Below, one piece after another: positions 8,316 through 62,974 of a stretch of DNA of 64,000 nt (its first letter is position 1; each line of letters begins with the position of its first letter). The notes beneath the pieces were generated by a model. The model saw nothing but the letters and a program-made list of their open reading frames with translations, was not told the origin of the DNA and did not search any database. Position numbers and translations under genes: made by a program. The stretch covers positions 480,001 to 544,000 of the forward strand of contig CAWKMU010000004.1 in assembly GCA_963850905.1 (NCBI GenBank), read 5' to 3'. Source of the stretch: an uncultured Gemmatimonadales bacterium. Its GTDB lineage: Bacteria; Gemmatimonadota; Gemmatimonadetes; Gemmatimonadales; Gemmatimonadaceae.

Positions 8316-8392
8316 CAACGTCCAGCGTCTAGCGTCCAGCGTGCAGCGTCTAGCGTCTAGCGTCTAGCGTCTAACGTCCAGCGTCTAGCCTC
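8316..8392 (+). repeat. Heptamer tandem repeat (YARCGTC) x11
   Basis: caacgtc cagcgtc tagcgtc ... tagcctc read directly in the intergenic space. Confidence 0.95.
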
Positions 8393-8394
8393 TC

Positions 8395-10798: not shown

Positions 10799-10840
10799 CC
10801 CTGACCCCTGACCCCTGACCCCTGACCCCTGGCGCCTGAC
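10799..10840 (+). repeat. Heptamer tandem repeat (CCCCTGA) x4-5
   Basis: ccctgacccctgacccctgacccctgacccctggcgcctgac. Confidence 0.9.
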
Positions 10841-10861: not shown

Positions 10862-11203
10862 TCAGTCCTTCCTTAGCTCCACGGGCTTGCCATGGGGTGT
10901 GTGCCGGTACGCATCCGCCCACGCCTCCTTACGCGCGAGCAATGCCGGCCGATCGGCCAGATTCTTGTCAATGAGTAGACGCTCGAGCGCCTGGAGCCAG
11001 TACTCGTAGTAGCGCGACCCATCGTCGGCCTCGCCGGTCTCACCAGCCTGCCGCAGCTCGTCGGCCAGCGCCGTCGTCCACTCCTTCCATGTGAAGTAGC
11101 CGCGCCGTGACAGCTCGACCGCGATCCCGAAGGCTTGCGCCTCCCATGGTTCGGCGAATACCCGCTCCGCATCGTCGCGCATCACAGGCTCAGGCGGGAT
11201 CAA
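10862..11203 (-). CDS. Nitrile hydratase accessory protein (P14K/NhlE-like)
   Basis: VFAEPWEAQAF, FTWKEW, YYEYWLQALERL, TPHGKPVEL; follows the beta subunit; start TTG 11203 or ATG 11182. Confidence 0.9.
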   Translation of the reverse strand: MIPPEPVMRDDAERVFAEPWEAQAFGIAVELSRRGYFTWKEWTTALADELRQAGETGEADDGSRYYEYWLQALERLLIDKNLADRPALLARKEAWADAYRHTPHGKPVELRKD

Positions 11204-11849
11204 GGTAGTCGTCCCAGAGATCCAGAAAGACCGCATCGCGTGGCGCCGCACGCTCACCCCAGAGCTCGCGCGCAGCGAACCGCACGGAATACACGTGCTG
11301 TGGCTTCTCACCGAGAAAATGAGCGTTGGTGTCCGGGAACACGAAGACACCGTGGTCGCGCGCAATGCTGCCAATCTTGTCGCGAGCATAGCGCGGCAGC
11401 CGGGTGTGGCCAGCGGGATGCATATTCTTCGTTCGCACCTGTTGGCCGGTGCGAAAGCGTGGTGTGACCGGAACGGCGCGGCTCGTGGGAATTCCCCCGG
11501 CGATGAGCGCCTGCGCTCGGGCCACCGTGAGAGCGGGCGTCACATCCGGCGAGGGAGTCGCTGGAGACGCGGCCGCGACTTCGGCCCGCGTGAGCAGACC
11601 GACCTCCACCATGAGATCGATAAATGCGGCGAGCTGACGTTCGTAGTAGCTCATCGCCAGGTAGTCGGCTGGTGGGACCCGCTCGACACCATAGCGCGTC
11701 GCATCGATGTTCCACTTGCCCCACGCGCCCATCGCGCGCCGCAGCGCGAACACGCGCGACTCCCACCACTCGTGAAAGACCGGCTCGTCGCGCTCGGGCG
11801 CGACCGCACCCATGCCCTGCATCCCTCCCATGTCATGCACGCCGTTCAT
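11190..11849 (-). CDS. nthB: Nitrile hydratase beta subunit
   Basis: [57 protein letters not shown]. Confidence 0.97.
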
Positions 11850-12451
11850 ACGGCGATGCGTCCCACGCCGATCATGGCATCACGCGTGACCACCGCAGCG
11901 AGCCGGTCCTCACTCCACCCCGCGGTCGCCGCGGGGCGCTCGGGCAACACCAGGTAGCGCACCTCGGCCGTGCTGTCCCACACACGGATCTCCACCTCCT
12001 CGGATATCTCGAGGCCGAATTCGCGCAGCACGCCACGCGGGTCGATCACTGCACGCGAGCGATAGGGCGCGGACTTGTACCACACCGGCGGCAGGCCGAG
12101 TACGGGCCACGGATAACACGAGCACAGCGTGCAGACGATGAGGTTGTGTACGGCTGGTGTATTCTCGACGGCGACCATGTGTTCGCCCTGCATGCCACCG
12201 TAGCCCAGCTCGCCGATCGCGGCATCTGCATCAGAGAGCAAGCGCTGCTTGTACGCGGGATCCGCCCACGCTCTTGCGACCACGCGGGCGCCGTTCCGTG
12301 GACCGATCTGGTGCTCATAGGCATCGATCAGCGTGTCGAGAGCCCGCCGGTCCACCAACCCCTTCTCGACTAACAGTGATTCGAGAGCTTTGACGCGGAG
12401 CGTGAGGTCTGACGGAAGCGCTTGGTGAGCGTGCTCGTGTGTGTGTGTCAT
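11846..12451 (-). CDS. nthA: Cobalt-type nitrile hydratase alpha subunit
   Basis: Metal-binding motif VCTLCSCY (Thr/Tyr signature of Co-type), [32 protein letters not shown]; 4-bp overlap with nthB. Confidence 0.97.
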
Positions 12452-12578: not shown

Positions 12579-12612
12579 GTCCCATTATTTGGTAAAGTCC
12601 CATTATTTGGTA
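12579..12612. promoter_or_regulatory. Perfect 16-bp direct repeat (18-bp period) in a divergent promoter region; candidate operator
   Basis: GTCCCATTATTTGGTA at 12579-12594 and 12597-12612; AT-rich within a GC-rich context. Confidence 0.5.
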
Positions 12613-12817
12613 GTAGTGGCAGCAGCGCACGAGGCGCCCACGTTGGCTGTGCCCAGACACCTCTCGACAACACAGTCTCTTCGATCACCGATCCAGGCGA
12701 TGAGCTGGGTACGGTAGGCACTGCACCGCTTCGAACGGGGGCAACGCCAGGTGACCAATGACACGACGGCTGAACGCCAGCAAGCACGGCCGACCACGGA
12801 GTCGGAAGGAGCATCAC

Positions 12818-13354
12818 ATGCCTAGCGCTCATGACCCTCGTCCCGATCGCCCAACCGATACGCCCAAAGCGCAAACCCGGAAGCGCAGTTCGCAAAAGGA
12901 GCAACCGATGGCAGATGTCGATGAACATGCAGCGTCAGCCGATCAATCTGCGACCAGGCTCTTCGCGTTCACCATCGATGCGAACACGGCGCAGATCGTC
13001 AAGCTCGAGAGCCTGGACTCGACCGGCAATCGGCACGAGTTGTCGGAAGACGAAATGGCCAACCTCGTCAGGGACGCTCGAGAGGACCGGCTCGAGAAAG
13101 TCGTCGAGCAGGCATTTGAAGCGGGCATTGCCTGCGTGCTGGACACCGGAATCGAACAGGACGACACGCACGAGTCCGCAGACGACGCGGAGCTCCGACA
13201 CATCCTGTTGACGCCGTTGATCGAGCGCAGCGCCGCCAAACACCTGATGGAGCGCGAGGTCTTGAATCGCGCCATTCTCGACACATTGATCGAGCATTCC
13301 ATGAAGGCACGCGGGACCGCCCATGAGGACGGGCCAACTGCCGGCGTGCAGTGA
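12818..13354 (+). CDS. Hypothetical acidic protein, upstream partner of the repeat protein
   Basis: Two in-frame ATGs (12818, 12908), each preceded by AAGGAG; GC3-rich codons; no recognised family motif. Confidence 0.75.
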
Positions 13355-13417
13355 GATCGCTCTGGTAAACCCCGTTAGCTCTATCCGTTTCAGCAAACGA
13401 CAACGAGGAGACCCCCA

Positions 13418-14518
13418 ATGGCAACCACCATCGAGCATGAAGAACTTGCAGGAATCGCGGGCGCCGCGATGCGCGGCAAGCGGGCCCGTCGCGCACTCAT
13501 CGCCCACCTCCTGAAAGAGAGGAGCGAGGGCCAGGACGAGGAGGAGGGCGATGAAGGGTACAGCGAGGAAGGGGGAGGAGATGAGCGCAAGCTCGTTCGC
13601 CTCCTCATCGCCAGCCGCATCCTGCGCCGTCGACGACTGCGTCGCTTGGTCGTTGCGCACCTGTTGAGCGAAAAAGGTGAGGAAGGCGAAGAAGGCGATG
13701 AGGGTGAGGAAGGTGAGGAGGGTAGCGAAGAAGGGTCGACCGATGACCGCAAGCTCGTGCGTCTGTTGATCGCCAGCCGCATGCTCCGCCGTCGTCGCGT
13801 CCGCCGCGCTGTGCTCGCCCACCTCCTCAAGGAGCGAGGCGAAGCAGCGGAAGAGGGCGACGAAGGCGAAGAAGGCGAAGAGGGTGAAGAAGAGTCCGGC
13901 GCAGAAGGAGAAAGCGATGAGCGCACGCTCGTCCGTCTCCTGATCGCGAGCCGCATGCTCCGCCGCCGTCGCGTCCGCCGTGCCGTACTCGCCCACCTCC
14001 TCAAGGAGCGAGGCGAAGCAGCGGAAGAGGGCGACGAAGGCGAAGAAGGCGAAGAGGGTGAGGAAGAGTACGGCGAGGAAGGTGGAGGCGATGAGCGCAA
14101 GCTCGTCCGTCTCTTGATCGCCAGCCGAATGCTCCGCCGCCGTCGCGTACGCCGCGCAGTCATCGCCCACCTCCTGAAGGAGCGGGGCGAAGCCGGAGAA
14201 GAGGGCGACGAAGGCGAAGAAGGCGAAGAGGGTGAGGGAGAGTACGGCGAGGAAGGTGGAGGCGATGAGCGCAAGCTCGTCCGTCTCTTGATCGCCAGCC
14301 GCATGCTCCGTCGCCGTCGCGTGCGCCGCGCTGTTCTCGCCCACCTCCTCAAAGAGCGCAACGAAGGAGAGGAAGGTGAAGGCGATGAGGACGAGTCCGG
14401 CGAGGGTGACGGACGAAATCGAGAGCTCATGCGCCTGCTGATGGCTAGGCAGGCCGTGCGCCGCCGACGCGCGCGCCGTGCCGTCGCCTACTCCATGCAC
14501 AACGGACACGACGAGTAG
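13418..14518 (+). CDS. Hypothetical tandem-repeat protein with alternating Arg-rich helix and Glu/Gly-rich blocks
   Basis: GAGGAG RBS; repeat starts at 13580, 13742, 13916, 14090, 14264; differences between copies are mostly synonymous in this frame. Confidence 0.88.
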   Translation: MATTIEHEELAGIAGAAMRGKRARRALIAHLLKERSEGQDEEEGDEGYSEEGGGDERKLVRLLIASRILRRRRLRRLVVAHLLSEKGEEGEEGDEGEEGEEGSEEGSTDDRKLVRLLIASRMLRRRRVRRAVLAHLLKERGEAAEEGDEGEEGEEGEEESGAEGESDERTLVRLLIASRMLRRRRVRRAVLAHLLKERGEAAEEGDEGEEGEEGEEEYGEEGGGDERKLVRLLIASRMLRRRRVRRAVIAHLLKERGEAGEEGDEGEEGEEGEGEYGEEGGGDERKLVRLLIASRMLRRRRVRRAVLAHLLKERNEGEEGEGDEDESGEGDGRNRELMRLLMARQAVRRRRARRAVAYSMHNGHDE

Positions 14519-14580
14519 TCAGCGGAACAGCGGGCCTTGGGACTCGGGACCGCTTGAGATACAAAGACAGCGATTGCAAA

Positions 14581-14610
14581 GGGCCAGTGGCGGCTATCCG
14601 TCACTGGCCC
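14581..14610 (+). terminator. 13-bp hairpin downstream of the repeat-protein gene
   Basis: GGGCCAGTGGCGG-CTAT-CCGTCACTGGCCC (one G-U pair), weak U tail. Confidence 0.5.
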
Positions 14611-14624
14611 TCACTGTATGTTCA

Positions 14625-14671
14625 CCCGTCATCCGTCACCCGTTACCCAGCCGTTCCGTCACCCGTCACCC
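14625..14671 (+). repeat. Degenerate heptamer tract (CCCGTCA)n
   Basis: cccgtca tccgtca cccgtta cccagccgt tccgtca cccgtca ccc. Confidence 0.7.
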
Positions 14672-14683
14672 TTCCACGCCGGC

Positions 14684-15742
14684 TTGACACTGGCCCACCC
14701 CTTCGAGGAGCCAACAAGCCTGAGACTCGCCATCTACGAGTGGGATGCCTGGCACCAGTTCATGCTGGTGCGCGCCGTCCCGGAAGCCGTTCGGGTCAGC
14801 GCTCGGATAGGCGAGAGCGCTGACGAGATCCTTGCCCGTCTGCCGGGAGGGATCAATGCCTTCGCGTTCCATCTCAACATGACCGCGACTGCGGCTTTTC
14901 CGGCAGACCGGCAGGTACTCGTTCACGAGTTGCTCGCACGGGGGATCGTGCCACTCAACGGGGCCGTCACCGACATCTCCAAAACCCAAGTCCACGCTCA
15001 ATGCCGGGCGTTCGGACTCCCGAGCCCCGCGACCGACATCCATGGCGAGGCATCGGAACTGGTGATCGTGAAGACTGATCTCAACTTCGGCGGCAGGTCT
15101 GAGCGACAGCTTCCGTCGGCGCACTCGGGCACCATCGGGCCGCAGATCTCGGCAGTCATGTCCGACTGGACCGCCTATCAGATCATGCGCCGCGAGGAAG
15201 TGCCAGCCGCGTGGTGGAATGATGCCGCGCTGGTCATCGAGCGCTTCATCGACAATCGCGCGCAGCACCTCTACCGAGTCAATTTTGCAGGCGATCGTGT
15301 CGTCATTCTGCGGCTGACCAATCCGCACCCGCTCAAGAAGATCGTGAACTCGACGGCCCGCCTCGACGTGTACTGCCGGACCGAGGATCTCGCGACCGGC
15401 GCCGTCGCCGGCGTGGAGCCGCTCGTCGCCGCCGCGATCGTAAGGTACCTCGACCGATCCGGCATGGACTTCGGCGCGCTCGAGATCATTCCGGATGATG
15501 CGGGCCACGCGTACATCATTGATGTCAACAGCACGTGCTACGCAAAGGTGCTCAATGTGCGGATCCTCACGTACCTCCGTCGGGGACTGTTCGCGAGAAT
15601 CGCGGCGCGAGCCGCCGGCCTGGGATGCCCGATCCCCCAATGGCGCACCCTCGCCCTCCCAACCTGGCCGATGCTGCGCAGCGACGCGAAACGCCTAGCC
15701 GAAACGCTGATGTCCCGTACCCGCCGCGCACCCAGCACCTGA
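14684..15742 (+). CDS. Atypical ATP-grasp-fold protein, same family as 5368..6237 (start uncertain, 14684-14720)
   Basis: LNGAVTDISK, VIVKTDLNFGG.SE, LVIERFI, MDFGALE...IIDVNST. Confidence 0.7.
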   Translation: MTLAHPFEEPTSLRLAIYEWDAWHQFMLVRAVPEAVRVSARIGESADEILARLPGGINAFAFHLNMTATAAFPADRQVLVHELLARGIVPLNGAVTDISKTQVHAQCRAFGLPSPATDIHGEASELVIVKTDLNFGGRSERQLPSAHSGTIGPQISAVMSDWTAYQIMRREEVPAAWWNDAALVIERFIDNRAQHLYRVNFAGDRVVILRLTNPHPLKKIVNSTARLDVYCRTEDLATGAVAGVEPLVAAAIVRYLDRSGMDFGALEIIPDDAGHAYIIDVNSTCYAKVLNVRILTYLRRGLFARIAARAAGLGCPIPQWRTLALPTWPMLRSDAKRLAETLMSRTRRAPST

Positions 15743-21250: not shown

Positions 21251-21313
21251 CGAGAGCTCCCTGAGTTGATGATCCGCCGTTGCGAAACCCCGCCGGCGAC
21301 AGGTTTTGTCTTC

Positions 21314-21368
21314 TAGCGTCTAGCGTCTAACGTCTAGCGTCTGGTAGGGGCGACGCATTGCGTCGCCC
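21314..21368 (+). repeat. Heptamer tract (x4) abutting a GTAG REP
   Basis: tagcgtc tagcgtc taacgtc tagcgtc tg GTAGGGGCGACGCATTGCGTCGCCC. Confidence 0.9.
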
Positions 21369-57047: not shown

Positions 57048-57103
57048 CAGCGTCCAGCGTCCAGCGTCTAACTTCCAACGTCCAACGTCCAGCGTCTAGC
57101 GTC
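57048..57103 (+). repeat. Heptamer tract (YARCGTC) x8
   Basis: cagcgtc x3, taacttc, caacgtc x2, cagcgtc, tagcgtc. Confidence 0.93.
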
Positions 57104-62559: not shown

Positions 62560-62717
62560 CGGCGTCTAGCGTCCAACGTCTGGCGTCGTGGGTGACAGTA
62601 ACAACAACGGCCGGACACGGCCGGCCTGAAGGTGTGCACAGACTCACCCCCGGCGGGTAGGGGCGACGCATGCGTCGCCCTCTAGCGTCTAGCGTCCAGC
62701 GTCCAGCGTCCAGCGTC
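62560..62717 (+). repeat. Heptamer tract (x4), then GTAG REP (62657-62680), then heptamer tract (x5)
   Basis: Read directly; the REP is followed by tc tagcgtc tagcgtc cagcgtc x3. Confidence 0.9.
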
Positions 62718-62974
62718 TCAGCCCTTGGTCCTACGGACCAAAGGCCACCTCGTGATTGCGCCAACGAGCCGCGTGTGCAACCCCACGGCTGCGTACATGA
62801 CTCAGGCAGACCTTGGTCATGATTGCCGTAGAGGCGCGCGCGCTTTTGACTGATACCCATATCTGATCGTGCGTCGGCAAGGGGCGGAGCGCAGGTCGGC
62901 GCCACGTCCCACATGACCGGCGCCACCGCGACCGCGCGTCCGTCCACGGCGCATGCACAGCAACCCTCGCAGGC

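Follow-up and report, generated by a model that had tools for sequence, protein, structure and literature searches.

The DNA analysed here (hereafter the window) is a stretch of 64,000 nt from an uncultured Gemmatimonadales bacterium (assembly GCA_963850905.1, contig CAWKMU010000004.1, positions 480,001 to 544,000), and between its positions 12818 and 14518 it carries two genes on the same strand. Gene A encodes a small acidic protein, and gene B, 63 nt further on, encodes a protein in which strongly basic, Leu-rich cores alternate with acidic linkers. The elements of the locus are as follows:

12806..12811 (+): AAGGAG, the Shine-Dalgarno (SD) sequence of the long start of gene A; the long start is SD-led in 50 of 63 distinct loci
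12818..13354 (+): gene A, acidic partner protein, 178 aa in the long form and 148 aa in the short form, which starts at 12908
12818..12907 (+): basic, low-complexity N-terminal tail of A (30 aa), present only in the long form, net charge +3 here
12896..12901 (+): internal SD sequence AAGGAG, ahead of the second in-frame ATG (12908)
13405..13410 (+): GAGGAG, the SD sequence of gene B; similar sites precede most homologues
13418..14518 (+): gene B, 366-aa charge-block repeat protein of 7 units (first, 5 internal, last), net charge -19
13436..13525 (+): first unit, putative N-cap, with Ala at core positions 6, 9, 14 and 23
13580..13675 (+): internal core 1
13742..13837 (+): internal core 2
13916..14011 (+): internal core 3
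14090..14185 (+): internal core 4
14264..14359 (+): internal core 5
14414..14509 (+): last unit, putative C-cap, with weaker hydrophobicity at core positions 15 and 20
14580..14611 (+): 14-bp GC-rich hairpin 3' of gene B, with no U-tract (z -6.7 against 200 shuffles)

An earlier note on this DNA, made from its letters alone, had described a 366-aa protein of five full units joined by E/G/D linkers, and the open reading frame (ORF) at 13418-14518 bore out this description. The five full cores are 32 aa each and spaced by 162, 174, 174 and 174 nt, with another 150 nt from core 5 to the degenerate last unit at 14414; Tandem Repeats Finder (TRF) recovered the 174-nt array with a score of 1018. The linkers measure 22, 26, 26, 26 and 18 aa, and 81-92% of their residues are Glu, Gly or Asp. 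The good ribosome-binding site, the acidic gene 63 bp upstream and the downstream hairpin reported by the same note were all found at the positions listed above. The hairpin may be a terminator-like or a stabilising element; it was not among the listings of a terminator scan. Scanning found no sigma-70 promoter-like site at the locus, Rfam gave no match of note there, and inspection by eye of part of the upstream sequences, with no motif finder applied, revealed no common promoter motif. Neither protein contains a hydrophobic signal or transmembrane segment (maximum 19-aa hydropathy 0.41), in line with the lack of a signal peptide remarked on before.

Core pairs within gene B differ at 8-15 synonymous but only 1-7 non-synonymous codons. 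When gene B was compared with its orthologues at loci L001 and L002, the ratio of non-synonymous to synonymous substitution rates (dN/dS) was 0.12 and 0.07, respectively; for gene A the corresponding values were 0.26 and 0.15. Gene B is under purifying selection, as the earlier note had argued from the excess of synonymous changes among the copies. An antisense ORF of 524 aa (12935-14509) was considered as a real gene and rejected. It is a shadow ORF, because its dN/dS was 1.5-3.2 and its frame was open in 17/34 homologues, whereas the + frame of gene B was open in 34/34.

Relatives of A numbered 281 by a single query and 875 clusters by profile, and B had 129 hits (E<=0.001) among representatives at 50% identity, three of which were dropped as non-members. 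From the metagenome relatives of A, the best 80 of 239 were used for loci. Core matches lie directly 3' of A, on the same strand, in 82 of the 86 foreign loci (L001-L084, L087 and L088; L085 is the window itself, and L086 repeats L001), and B also comes right after A in the carriers G407 and G447, bringing the total to 84/88. Two of the misses occur at contig ends: the contig of L034 stops within A, and that of L032 stops 116 nt past A, where a B-like ORF can be seen to begin. The median gap between A and B across loci is 19 nt, and unit counts by hidden Markov model (HMM) in 52 complete B genes range from 3 to 8. Co-occurrence of the upstream gene and variation in repeat number, both brought up by the earlier note, were thus observed. 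A and B are a fixed, strictly linked two-gene unit.

The distances in the trees of A and B are correlated (Spearman 0.77, n=63 pairs, permutation maximum 0.22). Read from sequence distances, this shows joint inheritance, not binding, since kin share both genes. No longer, fused form of A was found among 8000 candidates, which is weak evidence. In three proteins (P0128, P0159 and P0173), A-like and B-like parts are apparently joined within one ORF, and the A-like N-terminus of P0159 is very divergent; these joins could be assembly or frameshift artefacts.

Searches of Pfam, NCBIfam, PADLOC and PHROGs returned nothing credible for the pair, with no PADLOC match below E 0.05. For A there was no hit in any of these libraries, in PDB sequences or, as a usable hit, in ESM Atlas, and searches of PDB sequences gave 0 hits at E<=10 for either protein. 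In Foldseek, the model of A matched nothing at E<=0.001 in either PDB or BFVD; its best VIA match (Z 6.2) was to generic helices, with the N-terminal sheet barely tested. The model of B had 0 fold matches. Against Pfam DUF4054 (PF13262), B reached a summed score of 38.7 bits, above the cut-off of 23.9. None of its stretches passes alone (0 of them), and the best one covers 26 of the 105 profile positions (36-61). We rejected membership of DUF4054 as an artefact of summing over repeats. ESM Atlas clusters near B (scores 0.79-0.85) are labelled DUF4054 or hypothetical, and automatic annotation will mislabel the B family because the summed score exceeds the cut-off.

No description of the A-B pair was found in the open-library literature. 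The two-gene family is undescribed there, and its architecture is unusual. A and B each belong to a sizeable family, for which none of the libraries searched gave a family, structure or fold match; this agrees with the earlier note, whose author had recognised no family.

The earlier note needs two corrections, one of which is that the upstream gene has two plausible starts, at 12818 and 12908. In 63 distinct loci the upstream sequence was long enough for the starts to be counted, with the caveats that related loci are not independent and that the motif overlooked four loci: both SD-led ATGs are present in 33, only the long one in 17, only the short one in 6 and neither in 7. By comparison, internal ATGs with a comparably strong SD occur in 164 of 6739 host cases (2.4%). 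The charge of the basic tail ranges from +3 to +8, with a median of +6 in the 33 loci that have both starts. Gene A may yield two products, one with and one without this tail. At L041:793-1260 an upstream in-frame stop, lying between the two SD-led starts of A, leaves only the short form; it may be natural or a sequencing error.

Counted from 12908, protein A has a net charge of -18, and 31 close relatives share invariant Glu and Leu residues and an AFEAGI motif, AFEAGI(A)C, whose Cys is replaced in distant lineages. The AlphaFold2 (AF2) model of A had a mean confidence score (pLDDT) of 68, with a predicted three-stranded sheet and four helices. The last helix of A is similar to the latter half of the B core: the median gapless score with a position-specific scoring matrix (PSSM) was 23.8, against a 99th percentile of 15.9 in shuffles, for a window that was picked after the likeness had been seen. 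As a case of homology this was discarded as not significant (HMM maximum 2.9 bits; hhalign probability 0.4%, E 0.14).

The charge pattern of B is regular and extreme. Over 124 units, the charge is +9.9 for the core and -13.3 for the linker, with linkers of 19-30 aa and a period of 49-60 aa. These charges nearly cancel: in 34 of 35 complete B proteins (163-400 aa) the net charge per residue is -0.017 to -0.052, the remaining one being at +0.006, and the slightly negative net charge is kept across unit numbers of 3-8. Charged residues account for 41-50% of the sequence in 34 of the same 35 proteins, which also have no Cys, and Arg provides 78-96% of their basic residues. Charge segregation, expressed as kappa, was 0.44 for the B protein of the window against 0.14+-0.02 in shuffles, and 0.44-0.52 in 5/5 B proteins tested against about 0.15 when shuffled; the window protein ranks first for charge segregation among 3313 host ORFs. 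The charge patterning of B is far from chance, and B combines segregated blocks of opposite charge (kappa 0.44-0.52) with near-neutrality (about -0.03 per residue).

Two kinds of known protein share parts of this pattern. Alternating charge blocks promote phase separation in Ki-67, and Ki-67 repeat domains and NPM1 show the same tandem alternation of positive and negative blocks (PMC9106583). Those proteins are eukaryotic, disordered and switched by phosphorylation, whereas the blocks of B are hard-coded, its basic block is a conserved hydrophobic helix and its partner is co-encoded; we claim no sequence relation. In addition, Asp/Glu tracts autoinhibit nucleic-acid binders until DNA displaces them, as in HMGB1, where an acidic disordered tract masks an adjacent basic element (PMC10250230). 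B differs from HMGB1 in that every repeat has its own acidic tract, no DNA-binding fold is known in it and its host is a bacterium.

Each B core is built of two Leu-rich blocks about 15 residues apart, which flank a Gly-Ser-Arg motif and an Arg run. The hydrophobic moment of the cores at 100 degrees was low (0.07-0.25), with a spectral peak near 75 degrees. Because of this low moment the cores are not classical amphipathic helices, contrary to what the earlier note had proposed; rather, hydrophobic residues lie all round the core helix, which therefore needs burial. B may bring to mind dehydrins and late embryogenesis abundant (LEA) proteins, which are stress proteins. However, its low hydrophobic moment at 100 degrees and the lack of any such Pfam hit do not fit these groups.

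The end units of B differ from the internal ones. In 35 locus proteins, large hydrophobic residues occur in the first unit at frequencies of 0.14, 0.14, 0.23 and 0.06 at positions 6, 9, 14 and 23, against 0.87, 1.0, 1.0 and 0.74 in internal units, and in the last unit at 0.49 and 0.09 at positions 15 and 20, against 1.0 and 0.78. Both depletions were repeated in 23 full-length-looking proteins drawn from the 126 B representatives (first units, 44/92 versus 169/204; last units, 30/46 versus 88/102 at the same respective positions), in which first units were normal at positions 15 and 20 (37/46). Distinct terminal repeats, here with a weaker signal in the last unit, are a mark of alpha-solenoids: in stacked repeat proteins a single hydrophobic core is closed by N- and C-cap repeats, and armadillo-type proteins likewise combine near-identical internal repeats with distinct terminal units (PMC4756613). 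B differs from alpha-solenoids in having one predicted helix per unit, acidic loops of 19-30 aa and no family or fold match, and AF2 did not reproduce the packing.

The loci closest to the window come from Gemmatimonadales metagenome-assembled genomes (MAGs), with 93% and 80% identity in A, followed by Steroidobacteraceae MAGs with 64%. In the samples of genomes searched, gene A occurs in 4/401 Gemmatimonadota genomes (gene B in the same 4), in 3/251 genomes from the family of a Steroidobacteraceae carrier, and in 1/400 genomes of that carrier's class, the one hit being the carrier itself and one genome being unscored. In a tree of 36 A proteins, a single Gemmatimonadota clade was rejected by the approximately unbiased (AU) test (p-AU 7.8e-7), and a single clade of the copies from the Steroidobacteraceae family was not (p-AU 0.19). 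These data suggest that the pair passed horizontally between lineages; transfer is suggested and not proven because the groups for the AU test were named after the tree had been inspected. No copy of the pair was found in the phage, plasmid and IMG/VR collections searched.

Such a patchy distribution (4/401, 3/251 and 1/400), together with Gemmatimonadota copies that do not form one clade (p-AU 7.8e-7), would also fit a latent toxin. B would then be a cationic, membrane-active polyprotein, silenced by its acidic spacers and by A until proteolysis or loss of A, in the manner of toxin-antitoxin (TA) or abortive-infection systems. The cores are indeed close to +10 and Leu-rich, the small acidic gene comes first as in TA pairs, and animal peptide precursors also mask cationic peptides with acidic spacers. 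However, the cores lack a lytic amphipathic face, and position-specific caps would not be expected if the units were to be cut apart. PADLOC gave no match, the pair was not found in phages, plasmids or IMG/VR, and no defence, peptidase or export gene is conserved next to it. We regard this explanation as unlikely.

The reading that we tentatively favour is that B is a self-masked, charge-patterned scaffold that co-assembles with A and condenses polyanions such as DNA, RNA or polyphosphate. In this mechanism, the Leu/Ile-rich cores would pack together, the end units would cap the stack and some 7-10 Arg per unit would align as a basic surface. The Glu/Gly loops would cover that surface, keeping the protein soluble and near neutral, until they were displaced by polyanions or by a change in pH, salt or water activity, leading to multivalent assembly. 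Acidic A would bind B cores as a nucleator or solubiliser, and its optional basic tail could tether the assembly to nucleic acid, much as the basic tail of Dps does. Physiologically, and this is the weakest step, the assembly would probably serve to protect or store nucleic acid or polyphosphate when soil conditions are stressful. In favour of the reading are the strict linkage and joint inheritance of the two genes, the purifying selection, the lack of an export signal, the charge patterning, the cap-like end units and the all-round hydrophobic cores.

Several observations weigh against this scaffold. Whole B is net negative, so that nucleic-acid binding would need displaced acidic linkers. 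AF2, on a shallow alignment of 54 rows, turned each core into a single helix some 33 residues long, left the linkers disordered and packed no units together (predicted template modelling score, pTM, 0.24), and covariation over 273 B units, also in a shallow alignment, gave short-range pairs only. The caps are not cleanly complementary, as last units are somewhat depleted at the first-unit positions too (64/92, p 0.014). Some lineages, with nothing but the short start (6/63), have no basic tail on A, and the neighbours give no pointer to a ligand or to stress. Finally, in one lineage, represented by two loci that share the same sequence over 1169 nt, the 836 nt downstream of A contain no repeat gene:

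L074:781-1239 and L075:480-938: gene A without a repeat gene directly 3'

The separate helices that AF2 gives for B would suit a structure made of the two proteins only: A could wrap each B helix, like beads on a string, or the two proteins could assemble as a filament or gel. Such a structure would have no nucleic-acid or polyphosphate ligand; its role would be to protect the cell or, by way of the acidic linkers, to bind cations. Cores that are hydrophobic all round need a partner, A is acidic (net -18) with conserved Glu residues, and the last helix of A resembles the second half of the core (PSSM 23.8 versus 15.9). That likeness, however, was not significant by HMM or hhalign and came from a PSSM window chosen post hoc; in addition, the cap pattern points to packing inside one B chain, and the basic tail of A would be left unexplained. 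We consider a protein-only structure possible, if rather doubtful.

With 64 Arg in 366 aa, B could also be viewed as a ribosomally made store of arginine, and hence of nitrogen, replacing cyanophycin, with A as the granule protein. A nitrile hydratase operon adjoins the pair in the window and in L001, and asparaginase and lyase genes lie near two copies from the Steroidobacteraceae family. The nitrogen content of B, however, is only 1.62 N per residue, the host median being 1.38 (rank 57 of 1600), purifying selection on the Leu pattern and on the caps would be needless for a store, and of the 95 loci searched just one (L001) has the nitrile hydratase alpha gene beside the pair. A nitrogen store, one of the roles offered by the earlier note, thus appears very improbable. 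As a whole, the interpretation given there stands as to a selected two-gene module of no known family and falls as to amphipathic helices and nitrogen storage; its idea of a scaffold or polyanion binder is still the one that we would tentatively prefer.

The operon itself (alpha, beta and a beta-like accessory gene; window 10862-12400, - strand) is divergent from the pair and absent from L002. Between it and gene A, a direct repeat CCCATTATTTGGTA occurs twice with 17-nt spacing (window 12580-12613), possibly an operator. The copies from the Steroidobacteraceae family at L098:2504-6618 and L099:1195-5159 have an aspartase/fumarase-like lyase, an asparaginase and a porin-like cluster within a few kb.

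Of known helix-repeat proteins, GvpC on the gas vesicle exterior is similar in that it has five helical repeats, each some 33 residues long, in which Arg and Leu are conserved; these five 33-residue repeats bind Glu of GvpA through Arg (PMC9994262). B might play such a role, and PF00741 genes were present in 5/5 Gemmatimonadota carriers tested (G000, G278, G131, G337 and G403), compared with 30/401 genomes of the phylum (tallies that include genome G157), mostly in the host's own family (24/94). However, the five carriers amount to about two lineages of that family, a PF00741 match was found in 0/4 carriers from the Steroidobacteraceae family (completeness not given), the pair and the gvp genes are on different contigs in the host, and neither A nor B has a Gvp hit in Pfam or NCBIfam. 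B further differs from GvpC by its long acidic linkers, its lack of linkage to gvp genes and its occurrence in genomes without a gvpA match. A GvpC-like function seems most unlikely to us. The host has three gas-vesicle (PF00741) genes, at G000:C3:2009462-2011552 (L102-L104).

Among assembly scaffolds, EPYC1 of the pyrenoid and PopZ combine repeated stickers, disordered spacers and a co-assembling partner. CsoS2 of the alpha-carboxysome does the same. It is described as a multivalent scaffold with short and long forms (PMC13637733). B differs from these three: neither an enzyme client nor a shell gene is linked to it, its cores are longer and much more hydrophobic, its linkers are strongly acidic, and it has no family hit.

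If the assembly proposed above is true, A and B would be a minimal, portable two-gene system for building condensates or packing nucleic acid, of a design so far studied mainly in eukaryotic disordered proteins and polymer models. B is in any event an extreme natural block polyampholyte that comes in length variants of 3-8 units. The proposal, if true, would bear on the protection or storage of nucleic acid and phosphate in slow-growing soil bacteria, and would offer a tunable scaffold for synthetic biology. In its boldest form, which we put forward with considerable doubt, the pair would be an organelle-building cassette passed between phyla, in which a capped helical repeat with an Arg ladder switched by acidic loops, together with a partner in two forms, one with and one without a tail that would bind nucleic acid, would make a stress-responsive condensate of nucleic acid or polyphosphate in soil bacteria.

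The pair has no third conserved neighbour, and other neighbours recur within lineages only. When 43 selected neighbours were compared with Pfam, the families found were metabolic, transport or regulatory ones (phosphoketolase, GNAT, asparaginase, TonB receptor, YicC and sulfatase), and none was a defence or export family. An S15 peptidase gene neighbours the pair in the window as well as in L001 and L002. At L003:5869-8325 the pair is flanked by yicC, which follows rph, and by a pRiA4b ORF-3-like gene; this setting is suggestive of an inserted island.

Downstream of gene B, an ATP-grasp-like ORF (window 14618-15742, +) has a weak match to the ATP-grasp peptide maturase family TIGR04187 (E 0.01, well short of the cut-off) and no convincing match in Pfam. 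Its presence, along with the Glu-rich linkers, would be compatible with B being a multi-core precursor of a ribosomally synthesised and post-translationally modified peptide (RiPP), or a substrate of this ATP-grasp-like protein. Nevertheless, the ORF adjoins the pair in 2/95 loci only (L001 and L002), is broken by frameshifts in L002 and has four host paralogues (30-36% identity, on contig C3); moreover, no modifying enzyme, peptidase or exporter is conserved. We find such a role hardly credible.

Elsewhere in the window, TRF found 7-nt tandem repeats (e.g., CGTCTAG and CCCTGAC) at 8319-8393, 10799-10840, 21312-21342, 57048-57103 and 62684-62722, the first two of which are intergenic.

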